A stretch of DNA of 61,328 bases, taken from positions 1 through 61,328 of IMG/VR virus record IMGVR_UViG_3300045972_000344; one strand, given 5' to 3'. Both the position numbers and the translations under genes were made by a program. Positions 10,529 through 28,202 of the stretch are shown piece after piece. Every line of letters begins with the position of its first letter. The stretch's first letter is position 1. The notes beneath the pieces are model-generated. The model saw only the letters and a list, made by a program, of their open reading frames with translations, searched no databases and was not told the DNA's origin. Source of the stretch: a virus (taxonomy: Duplodnaviria > Caudoviricetes).

Positions 10529-10686
10529 TGGAGCCTCGCTTGGTCGAAGGTCATGGTGTCCACCGGGGCGAATTCATCCACGCGAGGGTGCTGGCACCCG
10601 GCCATGACGAGCCACCCGCACTCCGGGCAGGCGTAGCTGCCCCGCCTCAGATCGGTGTCTTCGGGGTGGTGCTGGCATTGGCTCAT
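10525..10686 (-). CDS. 53-aa Zn-finger microprotein (not in ORF track)
   Basis: MSQCQHH...YACPECGWLVMAGCQHP; ATGA overlaps at both ends. Confidence 0.6.
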   Translation of the reverse strand: MSQCQHHPEDTDLRRGSYACPECGWLVMAGCQHPRVDEFAPVDTMTFDQARLQ

Positions 10687-13600
10687 GCGGCATCCTCGGT
10701 CTGCTGTGCCTTCCGGGCCCGGAGCGCGCGGAGCGTCATCCCGATCCCGCTGTCGTCCAGGTATCCCTCTTTCGACTGGTAGATGCCAGCCAGAACCTGC
10801 TTTTTCTGCACCCGGGCCCGGGCGTTCCGGTCGTAGGCGTGGTCAGCCAGCAGGTTGGTCACCTCCACATCGGAGGTCTGGCCCAGGCGGTCGATGCGCG
10901 CCGTCCTCTGCTCGTGGGTCTTGTAGGTCATCGGCTGGTCGAAGTGGATTAGGTGCTTCCCGCGCTGAAGGTTGGCACCCGTGGCCGCCGCGTCCGAGGC
11001 GATCAGGATGTCCGCCGTGGGCTCCCGGCCCGGCCCGCCCTGGAAGGCTGCCAGCTTGCCCGGCTTCTCCCTGGAGGAGTCCTTGCCGCTGATGGACGCC
11101 ACCCGCAGGCCCGCGTCCTCCATGGCCTTGTGGAGCGCCTCGACCGCTTCCAGGCGGTGCGCGAAGAGGACCACGGGCTTGCCTTCGGCGATGCTCTCCC
11201 GGGCCATCTTCACGGCGGCTGCCATCTTGGCCCCGCCGATGTTGATTGCTCGGTCCATGGCCGCCTCTCGGAAGGTGCCGACCGCCTTGCGCACCCCCTC
11301 TGCGATGGCCGGGTATTCCTCCTCCGGCTTCCCGATGAAGGAGCGCGGGGCGAGTTCCTTGGCCCATTTCAGGGTGTCTTCCCCGAGGCGCAGCTTCCCG
11401 GCCGCCTTCTCGATGGTGGCGATCTGGGTCTGCTGGTCCGCGTCCAGGCCGATGGTCTCGTCATGGTGGTGGGCCACCTTCCCGCTGCCCACGCGCTCGG
11501 TGAAGAAGTAGCGCGACAGTTCGCCCTTGAGGCCCCGCCGCGAGATCGCCGAGTCGGATCCGTAGCGCCGCAGGAATTCGTCTCGCCCCTGCCTCGGGTA
11601 GCGCACGGGATCGATCTTGTGGAGCCAGTCGTATGCCTCGCTCGGGTCGTTCTTCACCGGGCTCCCGGTGGCTCCGATGTAGTGGCTGGCGTTGTGCCCG
11701 TGGGCATCGATGATCTTGGAGAGGAGGCTGTCCGGCTTCCCCTTCCGGTTCAGGGCGTCATGCCCCTCATCGATCATCAGGGCATCGAAGCTGGCCCCTT
11801 CCTTGGCGAACGCCGCCTTCAGGTTGTCCTTCAGATCCTCCGGGGTGGCGCCCATGGCCCACTTCGCGGCATCGTCCTCGCTGATCCCCCGGTGGGACGC
11901 CAGCAGCTTCACTGAATCGTCCCGGACGGCCGCGTGGGTCATCACCACGGCATGCTTCTCTGGGTCTCGGTAAGCCTGCAGGCGCTGTTCAAAGGATTCG
12001 CCCGGGACGGCATGCAGCTTGATCCCGGTGGTGGGGTCCAGGAAGTTCGCCGCCTCGGCTCCGAACTGCTCCTGAACGATGCTCGGCACGGCCATGAGGA
12101 TCTTTTTGCCCTGCCCACTGTGAACCAGCGAGGAGGCGGCGCCCATCATGATCCCCGTCTTCCCGCTCCCGGCCCCGTAGAACAGCCCCATCCGGTGCAG
12201 GCTGTTGAACGCCTTGATCCCCCGCTGCTGGGCCCGGAAGTCCCGCCCGGTCCCGGCATCGTATCCCATGTGCATGCCCTCCTGGACCTTGACGGGCTTC
12301 ATGCTCCGGCTCTGAAATGGGGCCGATGCGTTGGGCATAGCGGCCGACAGTTGGGCCTCGATCCGCGCGCCCAGGCGGTAACGCTCGCCCGGCGCCGCTT
12401 CCGGCTTCTCCCATTTCTGGGGCTCATCGCTCTCGGGAGCACCCGACAGTTCATCGGAGCCGAAGAGAGCGCCCCCCTGCCCGAAGAGCCCGGCTTCGTC
12501 CGCCTGCTCCATGCGCTCGCGGACATTGACCGACCGGAACTTCCCGGCGCCGCCGCGCTGCATCTTGGCCTGCTTCGACCGCCGCTCCGCTTCGAGTTCG
12601 GCCGCCTTCTCCGCCCCGGCAGTCGCCTTGAGGTGCGTGGAGTAGTGGGCGATGTCCCCCGTCCCCATCTGGAGCACCTTGCCCGTCAGCTTGGAATAGT
12701 GGCCGTGGAACTTCTCTGCGAGGCTGCTCTGCATCTCGCCCTGGATCGATTCGGTGGCCGCCTTGAGGCCGCCCATCTTCTCGATGTAGTCCGCCCAGGG
12801 GCTGTGGGAATCGATGGCCGCGAGGCGCCGCTCCAGCAGGGCCCGCTGCTCCCCGTGGGCCGCCGCGAAGGTGGACCCTTCCGCCGGGGCCGGGCCGAGG
12901 TCGTCAAGCTGCTGCTGCAGATCCTGGCGCTGGGCCTCCCCGGGGGAGTTCTTGCGGATGATGGCGTTCTTTTTCCGCTGGTATTCCTGATACTCCGGGC
13001 TCTCGGTGGGGCCCATGTCCTCGAAGAGGCTCATGCCCCCGGTGGTCTCATCGAACTGCTCAGGGGCCGGGCCCAGGGCCTGGAGTGCGTTCGCCAGATC
13101 CTCGCCCTTCTTCCCGTGGTGCTCCCGGTAGAACCAGTCCCGGATGGCGTGGCGCTGGATCGTGGTGAGTTCCCCGATTCCGGCATGCGCAGCCTGCAGG
13201 CGGGGGTCTTCGGCGATGGCCCGGTGCAGGGCCTCCCGGAAGTCCGGGTGATCTGGGTCCAGGGTCTGCCCTTCCAGGGTTCCGGTGTCCCCGCTGGAGT
13301 CCAGGAACTTCCGGCCGAGGGCATCGATGCTCGCCTGGATCTGCTTCGGCTCCCGCATCTTCGTCTTGTAGACCGTGTGCCCCGCGCTGTCCCGCACGAC
13401 CTGCCCGTTGTGCATCTCGGCCACGGGCTCGCCCTGCTCATCCCGGACCATCTCGTGGGTGGGGACCAGCTTGTTGATGGTCTCCTCCATCTCCCCGTGG
13501 AGGTGGGGGGGGATCATGTCCCGCAGGGTCACGCCCCGCAGGTCCGAGTTGATGTCCGTCCCACGGTGCCCGTCCGCCCACCGCTGGCCGATGTAGCGCG

Positions 13601-16013
13601 CGATGGCAGGCTCCAGGTGCTGGGAATCCGCCCCCTCTGGGAGTTCGACCTTCCGGTTGAAAACGGGCGGCTCCATGAGTTCGTTGTCGTAGCGGCTGGG
13701 CGTCCGCTTGGCGAAGCCTGGGGGGATGTATCCCTCCTCATCCATCTCGCCCCGCTTGATGCTGAGGGCCAGTTCCCGCTCCGCCACGGCCGCGTGGTCG
13801 ATGGGCTTGATCAGCTTGTCCTGCCCGGCGCCCGGAATGGTGAGGACCGCCTCGCCCCCCTCGTGGTCTAGCTGGTAATCGTTCGGCATGAGGCCCATGG
13901 CCGCCGCCGCCTGGATCGCCCGTTCCGGGGTGCTCCGGCCGAGCGGAACCTGCAGGTTCTCCGCCGGGGTGCTCTGCAGGGCCGCGATGAGGGCCGCCCG
14001 CGCCTCGAAGCGACCAAGGGCGCCGCCCAGCACCGACCGGGCCTGCTTGAGCGCCTCCACCCGCGTCTTGTGCATCTCCGCCGCCGCCGCGAAGTCCTTG
14101 GGGGTGCTGAGAAGCTGTTCCTTCATGGTCTGGGCTTCCGCCCGCAGGCCCTGGGCCTCCTGGGTCGCCTGGGGCAGATCGTTCTGCTGCTCCTGGAGGT
14201 GGTGCGTCTCCAGGGCCTCCAGGATCGTCTTCTGGTCCGCAGGCTCAAAGCGCGACCGGATGGCCCGGCTCAAGACCTGGGCCGCGCACTCGGGCCCCAG
14301 GGTCTCGACCGTGTCCCGGTCCAGGAGCCCGGCGCCGAAGACCGCCAGCCCTGCCTCGTGGAGCGCCGTCCAGGCCGCGCTGCCCCGGGAGGCCGCCATG
14401 CCCTCCTCCTCACTCCCGTCCCAGGCGCCCTGCAGGGTGCTGCTCTCCGGGTTGGCCTTCTCCACTTCGTCCAGGAACTGGCTCACATGGGAGCGAAGGA
14501 TCTGCTCGGTCAGGTCCGCGACAAGAGCCTCTTTATCCTCGGGAGAAGGCTCGGAGGCTGTCGCCAAGAACCCCGGTTGAAAAACGCGCCCGGTCTTGGC
14601 CGCGACTGCCTCCTCATACGCCTCCCGGAGCGCCGCCCGTGCCTTGAGCATGCCCCCGAGGTTCGCATTGTCTGCCAGCGCATCCTTGATGGCCGTGGCC
14701 GTGGCCTCCGCCCTGCGCTGCTGGAGTTCCTTCGTGGCGATGTGGGCCTGGACGGCTGCCTGGGTCTGCTCCTCATTCCGGGGTGCCCCGGGCTCGGCAG
14801 GGTTGACGCGCGGGGCCAGCCCCTGGGATTCCTTCCATGCGGCCGTGGCGCCGACCAGCTTCTCCGCCGTCAGGCCGTTGGCTTCGGCGCGCTCTCGGAT
14901 CGCCCGGTCGTATCCGGGGCCCTTGTCCTGCTGGGTAGAGAGGATCGTGTCGATGGCGAGGCCGGGGGTGAGGTCGCCCCCCACTTCGGCGAGCCCGGCC
15001 GCGACCCGCGTCTCGGCATCGAGGGTGATCTTCCGCTGGGCTTCCTTGCAGGCCGCGAACGCCTGCTTCAACCGCTCCCGGTGGTAGGCACGGGCGACCT
15101 TGGGGTCTGCATCGGGGGTGTTGCTGAAGAGGTCCGGGGCCTCGGCTGCCTGGGAATCGTCCCCCAGAACCTGCTTGATGAAGGCGTCCTCCGCCTTCTT
15201 CCGGTGTTCCTTGGCTTGGACCGACTGCTGCACATGGGCCTCGCGCTGCTCGGGGGTCATGGCCTTGAGGGCTTCCTTCTCCGCCTGCTGCTTGGCCGTC
15301 CGGCGCTCGGTCGACTCCTGCTTGTATTGCTCGGGGCTCTTGGTCAGGTTGATGCGGAGGAAGTTCAGCTTTCCCCCGGCTCCTCCCACCACCCGGTGAA
15401 GACCAGGATGGCCTTCCACGGGGCGAAGAAGAACCGCATTGCCCTTCGTCCCCGGCCCATTAGGATGCACGGTGATCCAGCGGTCCCCGCTCTGGGGCGG
15501 GGTGTCTGCCTTGGCGACTTCGAGAGGTTCCTTTTCAGGATCCACCGCTTCAGCTTTGATCCGTTTCCCCTCAAAGAACGCCTCCAGTCCCCCGTGCTCA
15601 TGGGGCTTGCCGTGGTGGTCATGGGCCGTCTCCGCCCAGGATTCGCCCTCGCTGATCCAGTCCTCCAGGCTCCCGTTCGGGATCTGGCGGATGCTGCTGA
15701 TCGGGTGCTGCCCGGCGGGGTAGTGCTTCATCAGGACTTCGGCCGCGTGAACCGGGCTGTCGAACCCGAGGAGCACCTTCTCCTCATCGTGCTCGCCGTC
15801 CGGGTGGGTTTGCCCGACCACGAAGACGCTGGGGCTGTCCTTGTGCGGGCCCACCCACGCCTTGACCTCCCGGCGCCCCTCGCCATCGAGCCCCTTGATG
15901 ATCCCCCGTCCGGCCTTCATGCGCGTCATCCAGCCGATGCCGTCCGGGCCCTTCCCCAGCTTGAAACCGCCGGGCTCGTGGGTCATCTGGATCGGGATTC
16001 CTGCGATGTCCAT
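10683..16013 (-). CDS. large polyvalent protein: degenerate InPase-like N-terminus plus C-terminal SWI2/SNF2 helicase
   Basis: GAGSGKT, IDEGH, ATGSP, ATGANLQ, QRTARIDRLGQ; RWITVHPNG segment; ATG 16013 has GGAGG (track start 16034). Confidence 0.85.
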   Translation of the reverse strand: MDIAGIPIQMTHEPGGFKLGKGPDGIGWMTRMKAGRGIIKGLDGEGRREVKAWVGPHKDSPSVFVVGQTHPDGEHDEEKVLLGFDSPVHAAEVLMKHYPAGQHPISSIRQIPNGSLEDWISEGESWAETAHDHHGKPHEHGGLEAFFEGKRIKAEAVDPEKEPLEVAKADTPPQSGDRWITVHPNGPGTKGNAVLLRPVEGHPGLHRVVGGAGGKLNFLRINLTKSPEQYKQESTERRTAKQQAEKEALKAMTPEQREAHVQQSVQAKEHRKKAEDAFIKQVLGDDSQAAEAPDLFSNTPDADPKVARAYHRERLKQAFAACKEAQRKITLDAETRVAAGLAEVGGDLTPGLAIDTILSTQQDKGPGYDRAIRERAEANGLTAEKLVGATAAWKESQGLAPRVNPAEPGAPRNEEQTQAAVQAHIATKELQQRRAEATATAIKDALADNANLGGMLKARAALREAYEEAVAAKTGRVFQPGFLATASEPSPEDKEALVADLTEQILRSHVSQFLDEVEKANPESSTLQGAWDGSEEEGMAASRGSAAWTALHEAGLAVFGAGLLDRDTVETLGPECAAQVLSRAIRSRFEPADQKTILEALETHHLQEQQNDLPQATQEAQGLRAEAQTMKEQLLSTPKDFAAAAEMHKTRVEALKQARSVLGGALGRFEARAALIAALQSTPAENLQVPLGRSTPERAIQAAAAMGLMPNDYQLDHEGGEAVLTIPGAGQDKLIKPIDHAAVAERELALSIKRGEMDEEGYIPPGFAKRTPSRYDNELMEPPVFNRKVELPEGADSQHLEPAIARYIGQRWADGHRGTDINSDLRGVTLRDMIPPHLHGEMEETINKLVPTHEMVRDEQGEPVAEMHNGQVVRDSAGHTVYKTKMREPKQIQASIDALGRKFLDSSGDTGTLEGQTLDPDHPDFREALHRAIAEDPRLQAAHAGIGELTTIQRHAIRDWFYREHHGKKGEDLANALQALGPAPEQFDETTGGMSLFEDMGPTESPEYQEYQRKKNAIIRKNSPGEAQRQDLQQQLDDLGPAPAEGSTFAAAHGEQRALLERRLAAIDSHSPWADYIEKMGGLKAATESIQGEMQSSLAEKFHGHYSKLTGKVLQMGTGDIAHYSTHLKATAGAEKAAELEAERRSKQAKMQRGGAGKFRSVNVRERMEQADEAGLFGQGGALFGSDELSGAPESDEPQKWEKPEAAPGERYRLGARIEAQLSAAMPNASAPFQSRSMKPVKVQEGMHMGYDAGTGRDFRAQQRGIKAFNSLHRMGLFYGAGSGKTGIMMGAASSLVHSGQGKKILMAVPSIVQEQFGAEAANFLDPTTGIKLHAVPGESFEQRLQAYRDPEKHAVVMTHAAVRDDSVKLLASHRGISEDDAAKWAMGATPEDLKDNLKAAFAKEGASFDALMIDEGHDALNRKGKPDSLLSKIIDAHGHNASHYIGATGSPVKNDPSEAYDWLHKIDPVRYPRQGRDEFLRRYGSDSAISRRGLKGELSRYFFTERVGSGKVAHHHDETIGLDADQQTQIATIEKAAGKLRLGEDTLKWAKELAPRSFIGKPEEEYPAIAEGVRKAVGTFREAAMDRAINIGGAKMAAAVKMARESIAEGKPVVLFAHRLEAVEALHKAMEDAGLRVASISGKDSSREKPGKLAAFQGGPGREPTADILIASDAAATGANLQRGKHLIHFDQPMTYKTHEQRTARIDRLGQTSDVEVTNLLADHAYDRNARARVQKKQVLAGIYQSKEGYLDDSGIGMTLRALRARKAQQTEDAA

Positions 16014-16089
16014 GCCGTCCTCCGTGCTCGACATTCTCCCATGACAAAGGCCCGGTTGCCCGGGCCTCGTGTCACTTCCGTGCGGGGGT

Positions 16090-16596
16090 CTACGCCTTGG
16101 GGACGGGGGTGCCCACGGTGAAGACCACCTGAGTCGCGGGCAGGGGCGCGGGCGCCACGGCGGACACCGCGAAGTCCTGGCTTCCGCTCACGACCGATCC
16201 GTCCGGGTTGGTCCCGTGGACGGTGAGGGCCGAGTTCCCGGCCGCCAGACCCTGGACCGTGATCTCCGCCGTTTCGGCAGGGACCGAGGAGTCGTAGGGG
16301 GCGGTGAAGGCCGCGCCGATGACGCTGGGGTCACCGGGGACGAGGGTGATGTTGGTCACCTTGGCCGGGGCGCCGTTGGCGTCCAGGAAGGCGATGGAGA
16401 CAGGCACCTGCTGGGTGCTGTCGAGGAGGGCGGGGCTGCTCATGGGGATGCTCCAAAAAAGGAAGGGGTGGCGGAAAGCTATTGTGACAGCGTTCCGGTG
16501 GTGGTGGTGACGGTGTAGAAGGTGCCAGATAATCTGGCGGAGCCTCCCGAGGATGATGTTCAGGACCGTGGCGAAGATGCGGAGGTGGCGCCTCAT
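16090..16596 (-). CDS. Ig-like beta-sandwich protein (start may be 16443)
   Basis: beta-rich C-terminal ~117 aa; ATG 16596 overlaps upstream stop; alternative ATG 16443 after GGAG. Confidence 0.55.
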   Translation of the reverse strand: MRRHLRIFATVLNIILGRLRQIIWHLLHRHHHHRNAVTIAFRHPFLFWSIPMSSPALLDSTQQVPVSIAFLDANGAPAKVTNITLVPGDPSVIGAAFTAPYDSSVPAETAEITVQGLAAGNSALTVHGTNPDGSVVSGSQDFAVSAVAPAPLPATQVVFTVGTPVPKA

Positions 16597-19500
16597 CCTT
16601 GAGCCTTGGCCCGGTGGTAGCTGGCTGCGGCGTGGTGGGCTTCCCAGGCTTTCTGGTGGCCCTCGTGCTTGTAGTCGGTGTCTTCGTTGGCCTGCTCGTG
16701 ACTCATCTCAGCGGCCATGTGGCTCATCTCGGCAGCGTGGTGGTCTTCCTTCGTCCCGGTCTGCTCTGCCTTGACGGACGCGGCGTGGGCGGTCTGGGAG
16801 TAGGGGAGCATCTGCTTCCCCGTCCTGCCCTTGGTGCCCTTGGCAGCGGCGAGCGCCCTGTCGTGGTGGGTCTCAGGCGGGGTGCGCGCCTGCATCGCGG
16901 CGACCTGCCCATCGTGGTAGGCGGCCTTCGTTTCGTGCTGCCCCCGGACCTCGCTGTCGTATTGGATCGCGGCGGCGTGGCGGTGAGCGGCTGCAGCCTC
17001 CTCGTGGACCTTGGCGCCTCCGGCCGGGGCGAGGGTGGTCCGGCTGGCCGACTCCGCCCGCTTGGCTCGGAGGTTGATTTCATCGTGCCCCTTCGCCATC
17101 TCGGCTCGGTGGTGCTCGATCTTGGTCCGGTGTGCATCGGCCTTCAGGAAGTGGTGGTCGGCAGGGTATTGGTTGGCATGCGCCGTGGTGCCCATCTTGG
17201 TCGCAGCCTCCCGCGCCTTCCCGTGGGCCTCGATGGCGAGGAGGTGCTTGGCGGCATGCTGATCGTGGGACTGGTAGTTGTCCTCCAGCTTGTGGGCATC
17301 GGCATGCTCGCTCAGGTGCCCGGCGATCTTGGTGGCGTGTTCATAGGTTCCCTGGTTCCCCGTGTTCTCTTTCGCGTGGTCGACCGACATTCCGAAGTGG
17401 CGGCTGGCCGCGTGGTAGTGCTCGCTGCCATTGCCCTCGGCATGCGCCTGGAGGTGAGCCTCCCCGGCCTTCTCGTGGAGCAGGGCGGCCTTGCCGTGGG
17501 CATCCTCGTATCCCGCCTCCCCGCGCGCATGGGCAGAAGTCTCGCGGCTGGCCTTGTCTGCAGCCCGGGTGTGGTCATCCGGGGTGGCGGCCGAAGCCTT
17601 CCCCTCCTGGTGGGCCTTGGTCTCGCGGTCTGCCATCTCCATGGCCTCCTCTCGGGTCTTCCCGTGGCCCAGGATGGCGCCGCCGGAGGAGACCGAGTGG
17701 ATGGGCTGGCCCGTGGAGTCCTCCCCCTCGGTGTGCCGCATCCCGTTCGGGAGTTCGGTCACGATGGGGGTCTTCTTCGCCCGGGCCGCCGGGGCGAGTT
17801 CGGCCGCCTTCTTCGCGTGGCTGGAGGCGTAGTGGCCGTGCAGGTTGGCTTGGTCCTCATGGCCCCGCTGCTGCCACGCCTCGGGGGCATGCTGGGCGGC
17901 GGTGCGGTGGGCCTCGGCTGCCTGCTTGTGCAGGTCAGCAGCAGCGGCATGCTCCTCGTGGCCCTTGCTGATCGAGTGGGATGTCGCCATGGTGGCGTTC
18001 TTGCTGATCGCGTTGGCCGCGTTCATGTGGGTGTCGTATCCCGAGACCTGGACCGTCTTCCCGCCCACCACCCGGGTGTGCTGCTCCACATGGGCCTTGG
18101 CGACCGTCTGCCCCTTGGGCCTGAATCGTTCGGCCACCTGGAAGTGCAGGTTCCTGGTTTCGGCGTGGCCCCGGGAGAATTCGACCGGGCCATTGTTGGC
18201 GAGGGTGTTGTGCATGTCTGAGGCTTTCCGGTGCGCCTCGTAGGCTGCCTGGATGTCCTCCTGCTTCCCCCCCCCGGATCGGACCTTCCCCGTCAGGACA
18301 TGGGCCGCGCTCGACTGGGCCTCGGCCGCCGCCTTCTGGGCCGGGTAGCTGGTAGCGCGCGCATTCCGCTCCGGCGCTGGGATCCGCAGGCGCCTGGACT
18401 CCGTGGCGTTCCCCTCGTGCGCGTCCGCGCGGCCGTCATGCTGAATGTGGGCCGCCGTGTGGTCGGTGTTCCGGTTGGCGGTCATGTCGTCAACCTGGGC
18501 CCTGGCGGCGGCCTTGTGCATCAGCGCGGCGTGTCGGTGGAGCCGGGCGGATTCGAGGTATTTCTTCTCGCTCCCGGGCCCGTATCCGACCTTGTCGTGA
18601 TCCACATCCCCGGCCCTGGCAGCCTCGCTGGCCCTGGTTGCGGAGGCGCGCTTGCTCTCGTAGGCGCTGACCTGGACGACCCGTCCGCCCTGGGTTCGGG
18701 TGTGAGCCGCGACCTCGGACTTCCCGAAATCCTGGCCCTCGACCCCGGGGGTGGCCGCATCCTTCAGGGCGCGAACCTCCTCCAGATGGGCAGTGGCCGC
18801 GTCCTCGTGGTGGCGGGCGATGGCGTGGTGGGCCTCGATGACCTCCGGCATGATGTCCATCCGGTTCGTGTGGTCCTTGGCCCGGTCCCGATGGGCGTTG
18901 GCTGCGGCGCGGTGGGCATTGAAGGCGCGGGCGTGGGAGAGGGGGGTGTTCTTTTCCCCTGCTCGGATCGTCTGGCTGTGGGCATGCTCGCTCGCCTGCC
19001 GGGCGGTTCCGTTCCCGTGCAGGTTCAGGCCGACCACCTTCTCCATCGCCATCGTGGCGTGGTCCCCGGCGTCCGGCTTCTCCATGCTCCGCTGGATCCG
19101 GGTGTGCTCATCGGCGAAGGAGTGATGACCCATGGCGGCCGTGGCGTGGTGCAGCCGGAGGGCATCGTCCGTGGATGCGGCGGCGGCGTGGTCGTGTTCC
19201 TGGGCAGCCTCCAGATGCATATGCGCGGCGTATGCATGCTGGTCGTTCTTTTCGACCCCCAGTTCCTCGTTCCCGTGGGCCTCCTCGGACGCAGCCAAGG
19301 CGTTGTCCGTGGCGGTGGCGGCCCGGGGATGGCTGCTCTGGTGGTTCATGACCTCGCCGTGATGGGTCCACATGCGGTTGAAATCGTAAGCCGCGACCTG
19401 GACGACCTTGCCGTTAACCGTTCGGGTGTGGCCCTCCACATGGGATTTCCCGATCTCCTCCTCATCGTCCTCATCCTTCTTCCGGTCCTTCTCATCCGGG

Positions 19501-20645
19501 TGCCCTTCGACCGCCAGAGCGGCGCCGCCCGTCTTCGTGGCGATGTCCGTGCCCCCGCCGAGGGAGGTCATGCAGCCCTCGCCCTTGGCGACAGTCTGGG
19601 TCTCGACCTTGGCCCCCTCGGCTTCCTGGGCCTTCTTCGCGTGGAAGGCGTGGAGTTCCATGTGGCGCATCGCCATCTGGCCGTGGTGCCCGTCTTCGGA
19701 GTCCTCGTGGGCCCCGTGCAGGGACATGTGGTGGTCGATGGCGTGGGCATGCAGCGCGGCGGCCTTTCCGTGGTCGCCCTTGGTCCCGGTCTTCACGGCC
19801 TGGGTGGTGGCCTTCTCTGCCTCCCCGCTCGCCATGGCCGCCCGCTTGACGGTCGGGTAGGGGAGAGGGCCCATGCCTGCCTTAAAGCTGGCTTCGTGAG
19901 CCTGGGCCTGGATCTCGTGGCCTTCGGCCTGCTCCTCGTGTCCGGCGCCCGGCTTGGCCTCAGCCGCCTTCGCATGAGCGGTGGCGGCCGCTTGGTGGGC
20001 CGCGACCTTGCTGTGGGAATCGTAGGCTTCCCCGGCCGTCCGCGTGGAGGTCTCAGCCTTCGTCTTCGCCCGGTTGTATTTCTCCTCCCCTCGGAGGCTG
20101 TTGGCCTCGCTCCGGTGGTAGGCGACCGCGTTCAGGTGGGACGCCTTCAGCTTGGCATGCTCCTCCCCGACCTCCGGCACATCCATGGGGTGCACCGCGT
20201 GAGCCTCCCCGTGCTGCTTGGCCGCCTCCTCGTGGGACGCGGCGGCGTTCTCGTGGCCCTCGGCCGTCTTCGTCCGCATCGCGTGGAAGGTGGCCCCGTG
20301 CGCCAGGGTGGTCTGCTTCATGGCCGCCGTTCGGGCGTTCTCGTATGCCTTCACATTGACCGTCTTCCCGTTGGCGAGGGTCCGGGTGTGCTGCCCGACC
20401 ATCCCCTTGGCGATCTCCTCCACGGCGCCCAGGATCTCCAGGGCCTTGCCCTCGTCCCCGCCCATGGCCTTGACCACCTCCTCGACCACTTCCATGGGGG
20501 TGACCCCCTCGGCCGCGCCATCGGTCAGGGCCTTGGCGAAGGCGATCCCTTCCGGCGTCTTGTCGAGGCCCCGCAGGTCTCGGAGGAAGGAGCGGGAAGC
20601 CTGAAGCTGCCCCGCCATGGTGAAGATCCGGGTTAGGTGGTTCAT
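16593..20645 (-). CDS. 1350-aa His/Ala-rich repeat protein, probable internal head protein
   Basis: many HxxAAxxHxxA helices; four K[GSA]xVxxHTRxxxG[KR]xVxVxxY motifs; GGAGG RBS. Confidence 0.75.
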   Translation of the reverse strand: MNHLTRIFTMAGQLQASRSFLRDLRGLDKTPEGIAFAKALTDGAAEGVTPMEVVEEVVKAMGGDEGKALEILGAVEEIAKGMVGQHTRTLANGKTVNVKAYENARTAAMKQTTLAHGATFHAMRTKTAEGHENAAASHEEAAKQHGEAHAVHPMDVPEVGEEHAKLKASHLNAVAYHRSEANSLRGEEKYNRAKTKAETSTRTAGEAYDSHSKVAAHQAAATAHAKAAEAKPGAGHEEQAEGHEIQAQAHEASFKAGMGPLPYPTVKRAAMASGEAEKATTQAVKTGTKGDHGKAAALHAHAIDHHMSLHGAHEDSEDGHHGQMAMRHMELHAFHAKKAQEAEGAKVETQTVAKGEGCMTSLGGGTDIATKTGGAALAVEGHPDEKDRKKDEDDEEEIGKSHVEGHTRTVNGKVVQVAAYDFNRMWTHHGEVMNHQSSHPRAATATDNALAASEEAHGNEELGVEKNDQHAYAAHMHLEAAQEHDHAAAASTDDALRLHHATAAMGHHSFADEHTRIQRSMEKPDAGDHATMAMEKVVGLNLHGNGTARQASEHAHSQTIRAGEKNTPLSHARAFNAHRAAANAHRDRAKDHTNRMDIMPEVIEAHHAIARHHEDAATAHLEEVRALKDAATPGVEGQDFGKSEVAAHTRTQGGRVVQVSAYESKRASATRASEAARAGDVDHDKVGYGPGSEKKYLESARLHRHAALMHKAAARAQVDDMTANRNTDHTAAHIQHDGRADAHEGNATESRRLRIPAPERNARATSYPAQKAAAEAQSSAAHVLTGKVRSGGGKQEDIQAAYEAHRKASDMHNTLANNGPVEFSRGHAETRNLHFQVAERFRPKGQTVAKAHVEQHTRVVGGKTVQVSGYDTHMNAANAISKNATMATSHSISKGHEEHAAAADLHKQAAEAHRTAAQHAPEAWQQRGHEDQANLHGHYASSHAKKAAELAPAARAKKTPIVTELPNGMRHTEGEDSTGQPIHSVSSGGAILGHGKTREEAMEMADRETKAHQEGKASAATPDDHTRAADKASRETSAHARGEAGYEDAHGKAALLHEKAGEAHLQAHAEGNGSEHYHAASRHFGMSVDHAKENTGNQGTYEHATKIAGHLSEHADAHKLEDNYQSHDQHAAKHLLAIEAHGKAREAATKMGTTAHANQYPADHHFLKADAHRTKIEHHRAEMAKGHDEINLRAKRAESASRTTLAPAGGAKVHEEAAAAHRHAAAIQYDSEVRGQHETKAAYHDGQVAAMQARTPPETHHDRALAAAKGTKGRTGKQMLPYSQTAHAASVKAEQTGTKEDHHAAEMSHMAAEMSHEQANEDTDYKHEGHQKAWEAHHAAASYHRAKAQG

Positions 20646-21897: not shown

Positions 21898-22085
21898 TCC
21901 TCGGCCTGCAGTTCTTCGGCGTGGAGGCATGTGGCCTTCGCCACCGCGAGCACCAGACAGTTGATCGCCTGCTCGGGCGTCCAAATTCCCACAGGGGGGT
22001 CAGCGATGGCCCCCTTGAGGTCGTTAACCGCGAGGACCACGCCCTGCTCTGCTTTGATCTTTTCGATGGCGGCTTGGGCGCTCAT
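21894..22085 (-). CDS. small hypothetical protein
   Basis: ATGA-coupled to the GNAT gene; 3' end overlaps the HDAC stop. Confidence 0.55.
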   Translation of the reverse strand: MSAQAAIEKIKAEQGVVLAVNDLKGAIADPPVGIWTPEQAINCLVLAVAKATCLHAEELQAED

Positions 22086-23617
22086 GCTGATCTCCGGGCT
22101 GCTTTGGCCTTCGTGTATTTAAGCATGCGTTGTAGGTGGCGGTCATCCCCCACCAGGAACCGACCACCGAAGTTCGTTCCAGGCATGAAGAACTGGCCGA
22201 GGGGATGGTCCGCGACCTCCCACTGGGCGTAGTTGTTCGTCTTCGCCACGAGGGCCTCGAATTCCCGGCGCTTGGTGGGGTTCGCCCAGATCGCCTTGGC
22301 CTCCTGCGCCTGCTGCAGCTTGTGGGCACTCGACCGCATCTTGGCTTGGTTCCCGGCGCTCGTGGCGGCCTGCAGTTCCCGCTGCCGCTTGACGATGTGC
22401 TGGTCGAAGTCGATCTGGGAATAGCGGGCCTGGATCTGGCTCTGCTGCGACCGCCAGCAGGAATTGTCCCTCGGCACGAACCCGTATCGGCTCCAGGCGA
22501 ACCCGCCCCCGCCGCAGGCCGCCGTCACATCGGCGTGGTGAAGGCCCCATGCCCGGTAGTAGTCCATCGAGTGGGCCAGGAACGCCTCGCTGTAACCCGA
22601 CCCCTGGACCGAATCGTCCGTGATCAGGTAGGCGTGGTAAACCGATTTTTCGGCCGGGTTGCTGAAATTGAAATTGCGCTGAAAGGTTCCGATCTTGCCG
22701 GGAAGGGCCGGGTCTCCGCCGAAGCTCAGGCTTGACGAACTCCCGTCAAATGCCAGCTTCAGCCCTGGCCCCCAAGGCACAAAGCAATCCTCGATCCACT
22801 GCCGAATGTCGCTCTTGCAGTGCAGATTCCAGCCGTTGATGAAGCCGTCCGTGAACCTGAAGGTCATCCCCCTGGCTGCGCACTCCCGGGTCACTGCATC
22901 GCAGATTGCCCTGCTGAGGGGTTCGGTCTGGGGGATCGGGTTCCCACCGAACATGCCGCCCGCGACTCGGACGGCGCCGAACAGCTTGGCGAATTCATCG
23001 TCAATGTCGGATTCAGAGGCTCCCGGGGTCTCCAGGCGCTGCCCGAAGATGCTGGCGAACTGGTCATCCGTCTCGGTCTCCGTGGGCCCGGTCGCAACCG
23101 GGGCACTTTGGGCCACGGCGGGGGCCACGGCGGGCGCGGGGGTGGCGAGTGGGACCACGGGCCGGGCAGGGGCCGTGCGCGCCCTGGTGGGCCTCACGGG
23201 CGCCGCTGCCATCGGGACGGTGTTCACGGTGGGAGGGGGTGCCTCCTGGCTGAACCCGCCATGGAAGGCCACGGCGTTCAGGAGGGCCCGGGCGTCCTGC
23301 GCGGTCTCGAAGTCCAGCACATCGTAGGCGCCTTGGCGGCCGTGGTGGTTCCCGCCTGCCCGGGTCCGGGTGTAGCGGATGCCGTGCCTGTCGGCGAGCC
23401 TCATCAGTTCTCGGGTGTCCGCCCCGTTGGTGGACCGGATCCGGGTGGGCCTCCCGTCCACGATGGTCGACCGCTCGTGAAGGTGGGCCTCCCGGCTGGT
23501 GGCCGCGATGGCGTGGTTCGCGTGGTAGTCGTGGACGAAGATCACCTTGCCGTTGACCACCCGGTAGTGGGCGTTCGTGTGGCGGTTCTCCTGGTGGGTG
23601 GCGGCGACAGCGGGCAT
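22082..23617 (-). CDS. multi-domain protein with C-terminal GNAT acetyltransferase
   Basis: VYHAYL...VQGSGYS (acetyl-CoA motif A)...GGFAWSRYGF; Pro/Ala linker; N-terminal domain shared with upstream gene. Confidence 0.72.
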   Translation of the reverse strand: MPAVAATHQENRHTNAHYRVVNGKVIFVHDYHANHAIAATSREAHLHERSTIVDGRPTRIRSTNGADTRELMRLADRHGIRYTRTRAGGNHHGRQGAYDVLDFETAQDARALLNAVAFHGGFSQEAPPPTVNTVPMAAAPVRPTRARTAPARPVVPLATPAPAVAPAVAQSAPVATGPTETETDDQFASIFGQRLETPGASESDIDDEFAKLFGAVRVAGGMFGGNPIPQTEPLSRAICDAVTRECAARGMTFRFTDGFINGWNLHCKSDIRQWIEDCFVPWGPGLKLAFDGSSSSLSFGGDPALPGKIGTFQRNFNFSNPAEKSVYHAYLITDDSVQGSGYSEAFLAHSMDYYRAWGLHHADVTAACGGGGFAWSRYGFVPRDNSCWRSQQSQIQARYSQIDFDQHIVKRQRELQAATSAGNQAKMRSSAHKLQQAQEAKAIWANPTKRREFEALVAKTNNYAQWEVADHPLGQFFMPGTNFGGRFLVGDDRHLQRMLKYTKAKAARRSA

Positions 23618-23620
23618 GGT

Positions 23621-26206
23621 CTACCTCCCCTGCAGCTTCGCGGCGAAGTCCCGGGCATGCTGGGCATGCTCCTCTGCCTTGCGGATCGCGGCCTTCCGCT
23701 CCTCACCCTTGGGCAGCGTCATGGCGTGGTGGTAGGTCGCCACCGCCGACTTCTTGTAGGCATCGAGTGCGGCCGTGATCTTGCCTCGGTCGGTGGTGCC
23801 CGTGGCGATGGCATGGGCCGTGGCCGCCGCCTGCTGGTGGGTCTCATGGGCCCGGGCAAAGCGGGGATCAGAGGTCTTCGGCCGGGATTCCAGGCGGGTG
23901 GCCTCCTTCGCGGCCTTGTCCGCAAGCTGGGCCAGCTTGTCCACCACGGGCTTCGTGGCCGATGCCCAGATCCCAGTGGGGTGCGCCATCACGGGGAGGG
24001 CTGCGTCCCGGGCCTGCCGGACGGCTTGGGCCATGGTGGTGGCGGCTGCCCGGGCGTCATCGGCCTCGGGGTGCTGCGCCAGCACTTCCGTGGTGGCTGT
24101 GTGGATCGTGTTCAGGTGCGCGAGGGCCCCCGCGAAGCGGATGGCGGCGGTCTTCTGCTCCCCGGTCATCCCGCCGTTGAGGGTCTCGCTGTTGATCGCC
24201 TGGATCTGGGTGGATACGGCCGTCTGGGGATTCTGTTCGGTGGTGGCGAACCGCTCCAGCTTGGCTCCGAAATCCAGGGCCGCGATCTGGCTGTCGATCC
24301 CGGTCTTGGCCTCGGTCAGCTTGGCCTCGGTCATCCCGGCGGGAAGCGCGGCGCCCGTGGGGCGCATGTCGATCATGTCCTTGGCATCGTTGGCCGCCTT
24401 CTTGGCCGCCTCGAATCCGCGACCGCTGCTGAGGGTGCTGGTGATCGCGGCCGGGTTCAGGCTGGTCATCGCGTTCCGCCACTGGTTCGCGGCGGTGGTC
24501 TTCCAGGCGGTCAGGCGCTCCTGGTGCCACCGAGGGCCCTTGCCCTGCTGGTCTGGGATGGCTCCACGGGTCGCCAGATCCAGGCCGATGGCATGGGTTC
24601 GGATGGCCTCCATGGAGTTCTGCAGGGCCTGCTTCGTGTGCTGGCTATCGGTGCCCCGGGCCCGGTCGCCAGCCGCGAAGGCAGCGTCCCGAGCGGTCTG
24701 GTATTGCGAGGCCGTGACGCCGGATCCGGCCGGTGGCCCGGTGACGGGCGCAGGACGGGGGGCCCCGGAAGGGCCAGCACCCGCGCCAGGGGCTGCCGGG
24801 CGGACGGGGATGGGGACGGAGGTTCCCTGGGGCGGAACAATCGCAGCGGCGGCAGCCTGGGCAGGCTGGTTCAGGCTCGGGTGCAGGTAATTGTCCATGG
24901 CCGTGTAGCGCAGGCGTGGCGAGGCGCTGTCCTCCCGGCCGACATACCCGCCCCGGACCTTCTCCGCCTTGATCTGGGTCACCAGGGCGTTCGCGGCGGC
25001 CTGGGACATGGGGGTGACCGTCTTGGTTCGGACGACCAGCGAGCGGCTGTCGATGCTCCCGTTCCCGGCGTTGACGACCCACTTCCCCTCCCCCACTTGG
25101 CGGAGGTCGATGATGTAGTGCTTGTTGTGCGTCCCGCTCGTGTTCTCCAGGACCACCCGGCGGTCAAGCTGCCCCGCGATGTGGTTGGTGAAGAAGCGGC
25201 GATCCTGGCTGAAACTCTGGGCGGCAGCGGCCAGGGCGGCGGAAGGAGACGGGGCCTGGGCGGCGGCGGCATTCGCCACGGCGGCATTGTTCGTCCGGGT
25301 GGCGGTCGCCATCCTCTGCAGCGCAGCCTGGACGGCTCCGGCGCCCCGGGTGGCGGTGTGGACGGTGTGCTCGTGGGCTCGGTCGCCGTGGCGGAGCCGC
25401 ACCGCGTCCATGACGGCGTGGGCCTCGGCAGTGCTGGCGAAGATCATGGTCGGGTATGCGCTTTGACGCCCGTGGTGGTTCGCCCCACTGGGCCGGGTCG
25501 CCACCGGGTTGACCCCCAGGCTGTGCGCGGCCGAGAGGACGAGGTCGCGGTCGTCCGAGTCGGTGGCCCGGATGAATGCCTGCCCGGACTGGTTCACTCC
25601 CACCACTGTCCGCTGGTGCATGGTGGCGCTCGGGTGCTCCCCGTTCACCGTCCGGTCGTAGTTCGGGATGTAGACGATTTTGCCGTTCACGATCCGGTAA
25701 TGCGCCTTCACATGCGCCGTCTCGGACTTCAGAACCGCCTCGTCCTGCAGATTCCCTTCCTCGATCCAGCGGCCGAGTTCGTCAATCGGGACGGTGATGA
25801 CCGAGCCCATCACATCGTCCGGGTTGTCGCTTCTCCCCGCCCTGAACGCGTGGATGGCCGCCTCCCGGCTGGGGTAACCGATGAAGACCTTGTGCTCATC
25901 GAATTCGCCCGTGGGCCCCTTCTGGTTGATGATGTGGGCCTCGGTGCCGCTGCCCATGAGGGGCCCGACCGCGCAGTCCAGGTGATCCCCGTCCGCGCCC
26001 TCGGTGCCCTTGATGTATCCGTAGTGGTAGGGCATCGTCACTTCCCACGGATCGCCCTTGTGGTTCACGCCGCTCCGCTTCGTGCCCGCCAGATTCTCGA
26101 TGGCGATGTCCATGCCGTGCAGGCGCCAGTGGGTCTTCGCGTAGTTCCCGGCTCGCTTCTGCGCCTCGGTCGGCGCATCGGGTGCGATGGGCGTGGCGGT
26201 CGTCAT
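23621..26206 (-). CDS. polyvalent protein: InPase + shared domain + WGR-like domain + helical tail
   Basis: AGNYAK...YGYIKGTEGADGDHLD...FDEHK; NKHYII...KAEKVRGGY; ATG 26206 after GGAGG. Confidence 0.8.
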   Translation of the reverse strand: MTTATPIAPDAPTEAQKRAGNYAKTHWRLHGMDIAIENLAGTKRSGVNHKGDPWEVTMPYHYGYIKGTEGADGDHLDCAVGPLMGSGTEAHIINQKGPTGEFDEHKVFIGYPSREAAIHAFRAGRSDNPDDVMGSVITVPIDELGRWIEEGNLQDEAVLKSETAHVKAHYRIVNGKIVYIPNYDRTVNGEHPSATMHQRTVVGVNQSGQAFIRATDSDDRDLVLSAAHSLGVNPVATRPSGANHHGRQSAYPTMIFASTAEAHAVMDAVRLRHGDRAHEHTVHTATRGAGAVQAALQRMATATRTNNAAVANAAAAQAPSPSAALAAAAQSFSQDRRFFTNHIAGQLDRRVVLENTSGTHNKHYIIDLRQVGEGKWVVNAGNGSIDSRSLVVRTKTVTPMSQAAANALVTQIKAEKVRGGYVGREDSASPRLRYTAMDNYLHPSLNQPAQAAAAAIVPPQGTSVPIPVRPAAPGAGAGPSGAPRPAPVTGPPAGSGVTASQYQTARDAAFAAGDRARGTDSQHTKQALQNSMEAIRTHAIGLDLATRGAIPDQQGKGPRWHQERLTAWKTTAANQWRNAMTSLNPAAITSTLSSGRGFEAAKKAANDAKDMIDMRPTGAALPAGMTEAKLTEAKTGIDSQIAALDFGAKLERFATTEQNPQTAVSTQIQAINSETLNGGMTGEQKTAAIRFAGALAHLNTIHTATTEVLAQHPEADDARAAATTMAQAVRQARDAALPVMAHPTGIWASATKPVVDKLAQLADKAAKEATRLESRPKTSDPRFARAHETHQQAAATAHAIATGTTDRGKITAALDAYKKSAVATYHHAMTLPKGEERKAAIRKAEEHAQHARDFAAKLQGR

Positions 26207-26324
26207 GGTGCCTCCGGGTTGGAGAATTTTCGCATATCCCGACAGCGCGCGGGTGAATCTGGAGTGAGGCACGGTCCCGCAACTGTTGGTTTTTCCTCAG
26301 AGTGCGGGTGGCATACTTCCCCCC

Positions 26325-27332
26325 ATGGACACTGGCGCTCTCCAAAACGCAGCCGCGCTCATCGCAGGGATGGGGCTCATGGCCTCCCCCGCCGAGATGC
26401 CGATGCTGACCCTCGATTGCGGAACCCAGTTCTGCAAGGCGACCCCTGCCATCGAGGGCGGTCACCGGGTGCTCTACATGGAGGCTTCGTCCGAGGCCCG
26501 CGATGTCCAGAACGAGCGGATCCTTGCGGCGGCGCTGGAGGACTCGAAGGACTATTTCCTGAAATACGGCCGGATCGACCTGGATCACGCCACCGTCTGG
26601 CAGATGATCCGCGAGACCAAGCTGGACCCGTCCAACCCCTACGCCCGGGAAATCGGCCGCCCCCTCGATGTCCGCGTGACCCGGAAGCCCGGCGATGTTC
26701 CCCGCGTCTGGGTGAAGTGCGCCATCTTCAAATCCTCCGACCCCTCCAACCAGTTCGCCCGCGCGGCTAATTGGTTCTGGGACACCCTGCAGGTCACCCC
26801 TCCCGCGATCTGGTATCCCTCGGTCGCAGGCTCGCTCCTCCCGGGTGGCCGCGAGGATGGCCCTGACGGTTCCCGCACCATCAAGAAGCTGCGGTGGCAC
26901 TCCATCGGCCTGTCCCGGAACCCGGTCAACACCGACCTGTCCCCCGCCTCGACCGTCCCCCTGGATGTCTTCGCCAAGGCCATGCGTCCCGGTAACGACC
27001 TCTCGGCTGCCCTGAACGCGCTCTCCCAGTTCTCTGCCCCTGCTCCGGCGGACGCGGATGCTGCCCTGCGGCATGCCGGGATCCAGCTTCCCCCCGTGGA
27101 CGGCGGTTCCATCCCTGCTGGCCTCGTGCTCACTGAAGAGCGCGGCGCCGTCATCCGGCGGGCCATCCTGGAAGCCCAGCCCCCCTACGCCATGACCGAC
27201 TGGCTCGCCAAGGTCGCGTCCATGGGAATCACGCCCGCCGAGGGCATGGCTTACCTCCTCGCCCTCCTCGGTGATGGACGGCGGTTTGCCATGACTCTCG
27301 ATCCCGCAGACAATAAGATCCAACCCCTGTAA
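26325..27332 (+). CDS. prohead protease
   Basis: EASSEARDVQNE...YFLKYGRIDLDH...PSVAG...IGLSRNPVN; first gene of head operon. Confidence 0.75.
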   Translation: MDTGALQNAAALIAGMGLMASPAEMPMLTLDCGTQFCKATPAIEGGHRVLYMEASSEARDVQNERILAAALEDSKDYFLKYGRIDLDHATVWQMIRETKLDPSNPYAREIGRPLDVRVTRKPGDVPRVWVKCAIFKSSDPSNQFARAANWFWDTLQVTPPAIWYPSVAGSLLPGGREDGPDGSRTIKKLRWHSIGLSRNPVNTDLSPASTVPLDVFAKAMRPGNDLSAALNALSQFSAPAPADADAALRHAGIQLPPVDGGSIPAGLVLTEERGAVIRRAILEAQPPYAMTDWLAKVASMGITPAEGMAYLLALLGDGRRFAMTLDPADNKIQPL

Positions 27333-27344
27333 AGGAGACCTCCC

Positions 27345-28202
27345 GTGAGCGCACTCTCGTTGCTTGAACTGGCCCAGCAGATGCTCAGTGGTTCCGTGGT
27401 CGCCAAGGCGGACGCGGCTCCCGCTCCTGGCGCCGAAGACCCCGACTCCATCCCGGGCAAGGATCAGCGCGCCGAGGGTGGCGCCCCCACCGAGGAGGCT
27501 CTGAACGCGGCCCGCACCGAGGCCCAGGCCGGGCAGCAGGCCCAGGGTGGCCCCGAAGGTGGCCCCGAAGGTGGCCCCGAAGGCGGCGCTCCTGGCGCTC
27601 CCGGCGAAGGCGGCGAGGGCGGAGAAGGAGGCGATGGCGGTTCAGGTGGCCCCGAGCCCGATGGGGACGAGGGCGGCGAGCCTGCCCCCCAGGTCACCAA
27701 GGCCGAGATCCTGGATTCCATCAAGTTCCTGGCCGACTTCCACGGATTGACGGGCGGCGAGGTCGCCAAGGCTTTCGCTGGCATGGAAGGCAACCCGAAC
27801 TGGGACGATGCCCCCGTGGGCGATGGGGTCGAAATGCTCCAGAAAATCGTGGAAGGCCAGCAGAACCAGAACAAGATTCTGGACGCCATCGCGGCGTTCC
27901 TGGCCGACCTGTCCAAGAACACCGTCAACCTCAAGACCGAGATCACGAAGTCCCTGGATGCCGCTGAGGCCGCCAAGGTCACGGCCAAGGAAGCCCTCGA
28001 CAGCATCTCGACCGCCATGCGCTCTGCTCCTGCCGCTCTCCCGAAGGCTGAGGTCATCGTGGCGAAGGCCCTGGGTCAGCAGGGCGGCGAGCGCACCCTC
28101 ACCTCCCAGGATCTGTTCAAGATCGCCCTGGAAGGCAAGATGAGCCCCACCGAGATCGCCTCGGCGAACCGCTCCCTCAACTACCAAACCACCGGGCGCT
28201 AA
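27345..28202 (+). CDS. capsid scaffold-like protein
   Basis: acidic Gly/Pro region, coiled coil, many xxK[AS] sites; between protease and capsid genes. Confidence 0.7.
   Translation: MSALSLLELAQQMLSGSVVAKADAAPAPGAEDPDSIPGKDQRAEGGAPTEEALNAARTEAQAGQQAQGGPEGGPEGGPEGGAPGAPGEGGEGGEGGDGGSGGPEPDGDEGGEPAPQVTKAEILDSIKFLADFHGLTGGEVAKAFAGMEGNPNWDDAPVGDGVEMLQKIVEGQQNQNKILDAIAAFLADLSKNTVNLKTEITKSLDAAEAAKVTAKEALDSISTAMRSAPAALPKAEVIVAKALGQQGGERTLTSQDLFKIALEGKMSPTEIASANRSLNYQTTGR
27546..27581 (+). repeat. tandem repeat (GGTGGCCCCGAA)x3 encoding GGPE
   Basis: three exact 12-mers. Confidence 0.9.

Follow-up and report, generated by a model that had tools for sequence, protein, structure and literature searches.

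A histidine-rich (His-rich) protein of 1350 amino acids (aa), encoded by an uncultured tailed phage (IMG/VR virus record IMGVR_UViG_3300045972_000344), carries within its chain a copy of the tip of the N-terminal arm (N-arm) of the same phage's major capsid protein. The copy is nearly invariant across the family of this protein and is bracketed by two predicted sites of cleavage after Lys. It reproduces, in conserved form, roughly the first 25 residues of the mature capsid protein. We tentatively read it as an excisable handle for loading the protein into the procapsid and for its processing there, and as this phage's version of a device that recurs throughout head modules of the SPO1 type, in which the prohead protease carries such a copy. 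Signals that load or process head-internal proteins are a known kind of element, of which the arm copy would be a variant. The window, by which is meant the whole stretch of DNA that was analysed, is the entire virus record of 61,328 bp, which is ~70% complete and has a G+C content of 66.6%. The features at the center of the analysis are as follows.

16593..20645, minus strand: His-rich protein, 1350 aa, carrier of the arm copy and putatively packaged inside the head (open reading frame (ORF) and homologues)
19500..19574, minus strand: copy of the capsid N-arm tip, residues 358-382 of the His-rich protein (BLASTP core residues 359-380, nucleotides (nt) 19506-19571)
19446..19583, minus strand: predicted excisable module, residues 355-400 (46 aa), comprising the arm copy and a charged linker
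28257..29744, plus strand: major capsid protein, SPO1/Twort-type HK97-fold, 495 aa (phrog_752, Protein Data Bank chains, AlphaFold2 (AF2) model)
28257..28334, plus strand: predicted capsid propeptide, residues 1-26, ending at Lys-26 (by homology)
28335..28409, plus strand: N-arm tip of the mature capsid protein (residues 27-51), of which the cargo stretch is the copy (hhalign range; conserved across 30 capsids)

An earlier note on this DNA, made from its letters alone, had aligned nt 19503-19592 (His-rich residues 352-381) without gaps to nt 28326-28403 (capsid residues 24-49), and this alignment is confirmed. In a single-pair BLASTP comparison, His-rich residues 359-380 match capsid residues 28-49 with 12 of 22 positions identical, 16 of 22 positive and no gap (E 7e-4). 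The shuffle-based check that the note had proposed also came out in its favor, as the Smith-Waterman score of 66 was reached by none of 300 shuffles of the capsid; with both proteins shuffled, 7 of 3000 trials reached it, and with composition preserved in 25-aa blocks, 3 of 3000; in a separate run of the window's cargo copy against its own capsid, none of 500 shuffles reached it. When the whole window is scanned without gaps in six frames, the two 22-residue segments are each other's best non-self match (score 66, the next best being 33), and 100 shuffled queries made from a 24-residue segment of the capsid arm gave best matches with a mean of 32.6, a standard deviation of 3.9 and a maximum of 44.

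Comparison at the level of profiles sharpens the likeness. Alignment by hhalign of five cargo copies with 30 capsids gives a probability of 91.8% and E 7.3e-7 over 25 columns, which correspond to capsid residues 27-51, and every one of the 30 capsids is matched by the cargo profile in its arm region, 23 with E <0.001 when reckoned on this small set. Run in six frames over 13 more distant virus records, the same profile matched the capsid N-terminus in 8 and gave no match in the other 5. The likeness to the start of the mature capsid arm that the note had described is true and conserved, and the note's interpretation is supported in part. At the DNA level the window's copy and the capsid arm agree at 41 of 66 bases and encode the shared Ser from different codon families, which argues against a recent duplication. 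The arm tip of one capsid homologue (P0015, 68% identical) is the nearest to the cargo type, scoring 25.9 bits with the cargo profile compared with 19.2 bits for the window's capsid, so a cargo-type variant exists in real capsids too.

The capsid protein itself belongs to phrog_752 (E 8.7e-52 over residues 20-484), and its profile matches three solved chains, namely SPO1 Gp6.1 (9vel, E 8.9e-35), a 463-aa phi812-type precursor (5lii, E 6.5e-29) and a 439-aa phi812-type chain (9row, E 9e-28). Over its whole length, 9row is numbered 24 residues behind 5lii and equals that precursor short of its first 24 residues; it therefore starts right after a Lys. The profile aligns the Lys preceding this start, and the corresponding Lys of SPO1, with Lys-26 of the window's capsid, a residue invariant in 30 of 30 capsids. 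Homology thus supports a predicted capsid cut between Lys-26 and Ala-27, and with a cut at this place the copied stretch would be the very start of the mature arm. Reportedly, 23 residues are removed from Cps of Listeria phage A511; the paper on the Bas63 capsid contains nothing on arm cleavage. An AF2 model of the capsid monomer (predicted local distance difference test (pLDDT) 80.8, predicted template modelling score 0.79) leaves residues 30-46 unstructured at pLDDT <50, as would be expected of an extended arm. The earlier note had also placed both copies behind a putative Lys cleavage site. This holds for the capsid, by homology at Lys-26, and for the cargo protein, where the Lys is present in nine of nine full-length homologues, but the lysines themselves do not align, since the motif starts two residues after Lys-26 in the capsid and five after Lys-354 in the His-rich protein, an offset of three.

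The carrier belongs to no Pfam family, has no match among 50,697 phage records, and its N-terminal domain gave no usable match in a search of the ESM Atlas. This domain (residues 1-340; nt 19630-20645, minus strand) is conserved and contains many invariant histidines, frequently spaced by seven residues (for example 131/138, 163/170/177, 217/224, 236/243 and 292/299/306), a spacing that suggests ladders of His along helices, possibly related to metal or pH. The one close relative in IMG/VR, G001, is complete at 87,976 bp and has a capsid that is 82% identical; it encodes a homologue of 907 aa, in which the arm copy lies near residue 595 in different surroundings with its sequence nearly unchanged. 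A word-based search with His-rich residues 335-440 found three further carriers, and the resulting five-copy profile, searched against 1.84 billion representative proteins, matched nine at E <=0.001, eight of which are family members of 635-1323 aa; the ninth, a 3506-aa repeat protein, was taken as spurious.

The conservation in homologues that the note had asked for is thus borne out, the arm copy being kept in nine of nine full-length proteins of 635-1350 aa (the eight found and the window's own). Its position ranges from about residue 341 to 587 and the surrounding architecture varies, and the family members are 30-83% identical overall to the window's protein, and the arm copy is near-invariant, with conserved Thr-Asp, Gly-Gly and Val-Glu positions. 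It is present as well in a homologue on a partial contig (L036), and another homologue (L037) retains a degenerate half of the motif alone. The cargo gene was found in addition in one further IMG/VR record, which has no capsid gene, and on two short contigs in a scan of a single metagenome.

The copy lies within what appears to be a processing unit. Candidate cut sites were described by the pattern hydrophobic-small-Lys followed by a small residue, with the cut after Lys. In each of the nine full-length homologues a Lys of this pattern stands directly before the arm copy and a second follows 36-64 residues downstream; in the window's protein these are Lys-354 (nt 19584-19586) and Lys-400 (nt 19446-19448). 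Cleavage at both predicted sites would excise residues 355-400 as a peptide of 46 residues. Within this module the linker is strongly charged and poorly conserved, and the arm-like part is nearly invariant. The linker contains a Cys-rich, zinc-knuckle-like stretch in G001/P0036 (about 10147-10503 of L009) and in P0034, and in P0037 such a stretch lies just upstream of the module; in the window's protein the linker is acidic and has no Cys-rich stretch. An AF2 model of the module region, made from three sequences, gives at low confidence (pLDDT 49.6) a coil for the arm copy followed by two short strands, and a complex prediction of two mature capsid chains with the 46-residue module, run without controls, gave a score of 0.00 and is uninformative on binding either way.

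Sites of this kind seem to be concentrated in the proteins of the head and of the putative cargo, among which three more features need to be introduced here.

26286..27332, plus strand: prohead protease homologue, with a vestige at about nt 26967-27023
27345..28202, plus strand: scaffold-like protein with five pattern sites, placed between protease and capsid as in SPO1 and PHB04
19374..19430, minus strand: hairpin-like motif, His-Thr-Arg ... Gly-Lys-x-Val-x-Val-x-x-Tyr, starting six residues after the second Lys site of the His-rich protein

The scaffold has five such sites, the protease one and a 1783-aa protein of the cargo block three; the His-rich protein has seven or more, and in the capsid the pattern falls on Lys-26. 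A narrower pattern gives 18 sites in seven head and cargo proteins compared with 5.3 expected by composition, and 8 compared with 7.1 expected in 27 other ORFs; the enrichment is indicative only, because the pattern was defined after these proteins had been viewed. In the scaffold, 0.39 sites are expected for the five observed, and all five positions are kept in G001. Neither behind the five scaffold lysines nor behind the other Lys sites of the cargo was an arm-like sequence found. Cutting therefore seems to be independent of the arm, which in turn should have a second role. Scaffold residues 107-138, around the second Lys site, weakly resemble capsid residues 13-43, which span propeptide and cut site (15 of 33 identical, BLASTP E 0.17, score reached by 2 of 500 shuffles); this resemblance is not conserved in G001, as far as compared, and is not claimed.

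The hairpin-like motif follows the module in eight of the nine homologues. In the window a motif of this type (Lys, then small-x-Val-x-x-His-Thr/Tyr-Arg, two to three residues, and Gly-Lys/Gly-x-Val-x-Val-x-x-Tyr) occurs six times in three putative cargo proteins, starting on the minus strand at nt 20390, 19430, 18704 and 18080 in the His-rich protein, at 25702 in an 883-aa InPase-domain protein and at 23569 in a 511-aa protein. It stands nearly always directly after a predicted Lys cut site and is present in G001 too. Pfam searches with four copies gave nothing below E 0.1; AF2 hints at a β-hairpin, and the motif may be a general packaging or anchoring element of these cargo proteins.

Evidence that the arm copy is more than a peculiarity of one protein comes from relatives, in which each locus was searched with its own capsid arm. 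Ten of ten uncultured loci with capsids 30-34% identical to that of the window (L014-L023) have a near-perfect second copy ~1 kb upstream, scoring 78-105 of a possible 115-117 where the null maximum is 54. The ORFs of five of these ten were viewed: in L014 the second copy lies in a protease homologue behind the catalytic domain, and in L017 and L020-L022 it lies after the protease's conserved Pro-Val-Asn stretch. For eight named phages (PHB04, SPO1, Dolphis, ECML-606-1, Thermus Cumys, Mecenats66, CP-51 and the Twort-type PMS2) the annotated protease was compared with residues 1-90 of the cognate capsid. All eight gave a match, with scores of 54-122, none of which was reached by any of 500 shuffles, and the likeness spans 48-63 residues in SPO1, CP-51 and PMS2. 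The protease copies follow the lineage-specific variants of their own capsids, yet share the codon at only 4 of 12 to 18 of 23 identical residues, a pattern more readily attributed to selection than to recent gene conversion. The cargo profile scores 11.0 bits on the copy in the Dolphis protease and 7.3 bits on that of PHB04, both weak, and 8-26 bits on capsids of its own clade. A full-text literature search found no paper describing protease arm copies, which is not proof of their absence from the literature.

In the window the protease lacks this element. It aligns with the head maturation protease of PHB04 (41% identity over 200 aa, E 3e-40), and the alignment stops where PHB04 has a Lys and the arm copy. 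No significant likeness was found between the window's protease and its own capsid (E 1.7; Smith-Waterman score 32, reached by 160 of 500 shuffles), nor between protease and capsid of G001 (score reached by 93 of 500 shuffles). The protease of the window's clade has lost its arm copy, and the cargo protein carries one instead. That relatives place such copies in the protease points to a device for head loading and processing rather than to an anchor specific to cargo.

On the reading that we favor, if at slightly less than even odds, the copy would bind, during procapsid assembly, whatever partner holds the tip of the capsid arm, be it the core formed by the scaffold or the inside of the shell, and the His-rich protein would be co-assembled inside. 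The prohead protease would then cut after Lys-354 and Lys-400, excising the 46-residue peptide and freeing both halves of the protein inside the head. In the procapsids of 80alpha and SPP1, scaffold proteins are described as binding the capsid N-arm (PMC5644958, PMC6813328), and two targeting pieces are described as being removed by the protease, the T4 capsid targeting sequence (CTS) and the propeptide at the C-terminus of the SPN3US protease (PMC7411985). An excisable loading handle is favored by these precedents, in which a scaffold holds the capsid N-arm and removable targeting pieces are known. The His-rich protein is probably packaged, since an InPase polyvalent cluster adjoins the head genes and the cargo proteins are enriched in cut sites.

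Several observations weigh against this reading. The contact of the scaffold in 80alpha and SPP1 is, as described there, with the helix that follows the arm tip (PMC5644958, PMC6813328), and the window's copy covers the arm tip only and not the following helix; it also lacks Arg-47, which is invariant in 30 of 30 capsids. The likeness is weaker in G001, whose cargo copy scores 47 against its own capsid in the six-frame scan, with a null maximum of 48, and gives a Smith-Waterman score of 51 that 2 of 500 shuffles reach. Only three cargo-capsid pairs are at hand (the window, G001 and P0018/P0033, the third pairing being putative), and in these the two motifs are too conserved to display the co-variation that the note had proposed to look for. 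No second copy was found within 10 kb, nor in the protease, at six loci with capsids 40-50% identical to the window's (L012, L013 and L039-L042), so members of this lineage can manage without a handle of this kind, and the device is dispensable, if widespread. Every step of the mechanism, moreover, is drawn from sequence comparison and from analogy; the binding partner, the cuts and the packaging of the His-rich protein itself are what we infer.

The strongest competitor, which we consider possible though clearly less probable, is that the arm-like sequence is a docking determinant that presents the preceding Lys to the prohead protease, so that cargo, capsid and, in relatives, the self-processing site of the protease would have an enzyme in common and not a partner in the shell. 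The copy always stands directly behind a Lys, at Lys-26 of the capsid, at Lys-354 of the cargo protein and its equivalents in the nine homologues, and in the protease copies; no partner other than the protease is known to contact the N-termini of capsid proteins, and the co-variation of protease copies with capsids within lineages is as would be expected of a co-evolving enzyme and substrate. However, nothing resembling the arm stands behind the five conserved Lys sites of the scaffold or the remaining ones of the cargo, the distance from Lys to motif differs by three residues between capsid and cargo, and the 48-63 residues of likeness in SPO1, CP-51 and PMS2 exceed what an active-site cleft reads.

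The earlier note had proposed that the peptide docks cargo into the groove of the N-arm on the inner shell or modulates assembly. In a permanent dock, the N-terminus freed by a cut after Lys-354, similar to that of a mature capsid arm, would insert into the socket of the arm on the inner shell, for example in sockets left empty where the portal replaces a penton, and would anchor the cargo there. The copied part is indeed the part retained on the mature capsid; 55 DarA-Hdf pairs are described on the inner shell of phage P1 (PMC12810830), and the arm tips of SPP1 are described as making contacts between capsomers, including arm-to-arm contacts (PMC6813328). We nonetheless regard such an anchor as unlikely. 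A cut at the second conserved Lys site, 36-64 residues further downstream, would separate the copy from the remaining protein, and a processed copy cut loose from both halves of the protein fits a transient tag better than a permanent dock; in addition, each capsid subunit supplies its own arm, so that free sockets should be few, and the copy is without the Arg-47 that is invariant in capsids.

A related view, to which we give slightly less credence still, makes the carrier a pseudo-subunit of the lattice. The copy would insert into the N-arm socket of a neighbor or pair with an arm that has no partner, sockets emptied where the portal replaces a penton included, and the carrier would be parked by the portal and be the first to leave with the DNA. 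The device would load the protease in most SPO1-type phages and would here have been handed to a His-rich ejection protein.

The released peptide might instead be the product, with the 46-residue piece acting inside the head in the manner of the T4 internal peptides and its likeness to the arm being secondary. The module is bracketed by sites in nine of nine homologues, its linker is strongly charged, and a Cys-rich zinc-knuckle-like stretch lies in or beside it in G001/P0036, P0034 and P0037. We hold this to be improbable, given that the linker is poorly conserved where the arm-like part is nearly invariant, and that the same kind of copy in the proteases of relatives would be left unexplained. 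A relic of old recombination among head genes, or a chance match of Gly/Ala/Thr-rich sequence, in either case without present function, is already disfavored and would surprise us most: the pairwise significance is moderate (E 7e-4; 7 of 3000 shuffles), many pairs may have been compared when the likeness was first noticed and the L037 homologue keeps a degenerate half-motif, but the profile-profile E of 7.3e-7, the unique reciprocal match in six frames, the near-invariance in nine homologues only 30-83% identical overall and the DNA, which speaks against recent duplication, all tell against it.

The genomic setting is that of a myophage, with genes for tail sheath, baseplate wedge and primase. 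The head module runs on the plus strand in the order protease homologue (26286..27332), scaffold-like gene (27345..28202) and capsid gene (28257..29744), and divergent from the protease gene lies a block of large genes encoding, in order, the 883-aa InPase protein, the 511-aa protein, the 1350-aa His-rich protein, a 168-aa protein and the 1783-aa InPase and helicase protein. The remaining putative cargo proteins are:

23621..26272, minus strand: 883-aa InPase-domain protein, polyvalent and putatively packaged (PF18823, E 4e-40), with one hairpin motif
22082..23617, minus strand: 511-aa protein with a hairpin motif at its N-terminus (ORF list, motif scan)
10683..16034, minus strand: 1783-aa InPase and helicase protein, DarB-like and polyvalent (PF18823, E 2.8e-22; Helicase_C, E 2.3e-10; phrog_62)

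Polyvalent proteins are described as combining several effector domains, and for the class with InPase domains packaging in the virion is predicted (PMC5512222). The two InPase proteins of the window are of this kind, and the His-rich protein does not combine several effector domains. A gene of the histone-deacetylase family (20785-21897, plus strand; PF00850, E 9e-32) is the lone plus-strand gene amid the cargo block and occupies the same place in G001. Directly downstream of the His-rich gene, the 168-aa protein (16090-16596, minus strand) has a weak BLASTP likeness to capsid residues 307-368 (E 0.015), and the two may share a small β domain; as a match to the capsid N-terminus it was dropped, the Smith-Waterman score of 46, reached by none of 500 shuffles, having no support from BLASTP. 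Elsewhere, a 732-aa protein (37604-39802, minus strand) has a weak C-terminal match, below the cutoff, to a pretoxin HINT domain (E 0.0015).

The source is an uncultured soil-type phage belonging to a clade of uncultured myophages; soil and peat metagenomes contain the proteins P0007, P0010, P0020 and P0034. Capsid relatives that are 40-50% identical occur in contigs of Acidobacteria assemblies, two of which exceed 300 kb, and the host phylum is therefore probably Acidobacteriota. These two, of 331 and 342 kb, are long bacterial contigs, and the relatives inside them (L040 and L042, 41-44% identical) are likely prophages, a hint at the phylum infected by the group as a whole.

To our knowledge, how proteins are selected for packaging into the heads of tailed phages is known for very few systems, chiefly T4 and partly P1 and giant phages. 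If the copy is a loading tag, there would be tags of a second type, with a sequence taken from the capsid protein; the protease would use them across a large group of SPO1-, Twort- and PHB04-type phages, and in the window a cargo protein would. The transfer from enzyme to cargo that this clade shows would amount to an exchange experiment done by nature and suggests that such a tag can be moved between proteins. A tag of this kind would supply a testable rule for predicting the packaged proteins of uncultured phages and an uncomplicated means of bringing foreign proteins into capsids of the SPO1 type. Were the copy to serve only in docking to the protease, it would still define the substrate code, with its cut after Lys, of a widespread protease family.

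Among known systems the closest are the SPO1-type prohead proteases themselves (SPO1 gp3.2, CP-51 gp32, PHB04 gp022, Dolphis gp8 and that of PMS2), which have the same element, a copy of the cut site and arm of their own capsid behind a Lys. As in these proteases, the window's copy is significantly like the cut site and arm of the cognate capsid (E 7e-4 in the pairwise comparison, E 7.3e-7 between profiles, 0 of 500 shuffles), but the copy lies in the His-rich protein and not in the protease behind the catalytic domain; the carrier here is non-enzymatic, the copy comprises the arm tip only, and two sites bracket it. In herpesviruses and in phages with nested protease-scaffold genes of the lambda/P2 type, the protease likewise rides into the procapsid on a shared sequence; there the shared piece is the capsid-binding C-terminus of the scaffold, whereas here it is the capsid's own N-terminal arm. 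Encapsulin cargo-loading peptides are short, Gly-rich and linear and dock cargo inside an HK97-fold shell; compared by description only, they are terminal, are not excised and are unlike the shell protein, whereas the window's copy is non-terminal.

The prohead protease of HK97, gp4, is said to have a tail that serves as a C-terminal targeting piece. In SPN3US gp245 a propeptide outside the working domain is described as loading the protein into the procapsid before it is removed autocatalytically (PMC7411985), and for neither of these pieces is a likeness to the capsid arm reported. Phage P1 packages anti-defense proteins of the Dar system, some of which bind the inner surface of the capsid, and the neighbors of the His-rich gene are DarB-like (PMC12810830; PMC5512222); DarA and Hdf bind through helical bundles at the junctions of pentons and hexons, and the account of these contacts describes no arm mimicry (PMC12810830). 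The CTS of T4, present on IPI-III and Alt, is a short peptide thought to direct packaged proteins, which are later ejected, to the core of the prohead and to be taken off afterwards by the protease (PMC7411985). With a length of 10-20 residues, the T4 peptide stands at the N-terminus, undergoes a single cut after Glu and does not copy the capsid, whereas the element in the window is internal (residues 355-400 of 1350), has predicted Lys cuts on both sides and resembles the arm of the capsid itself.

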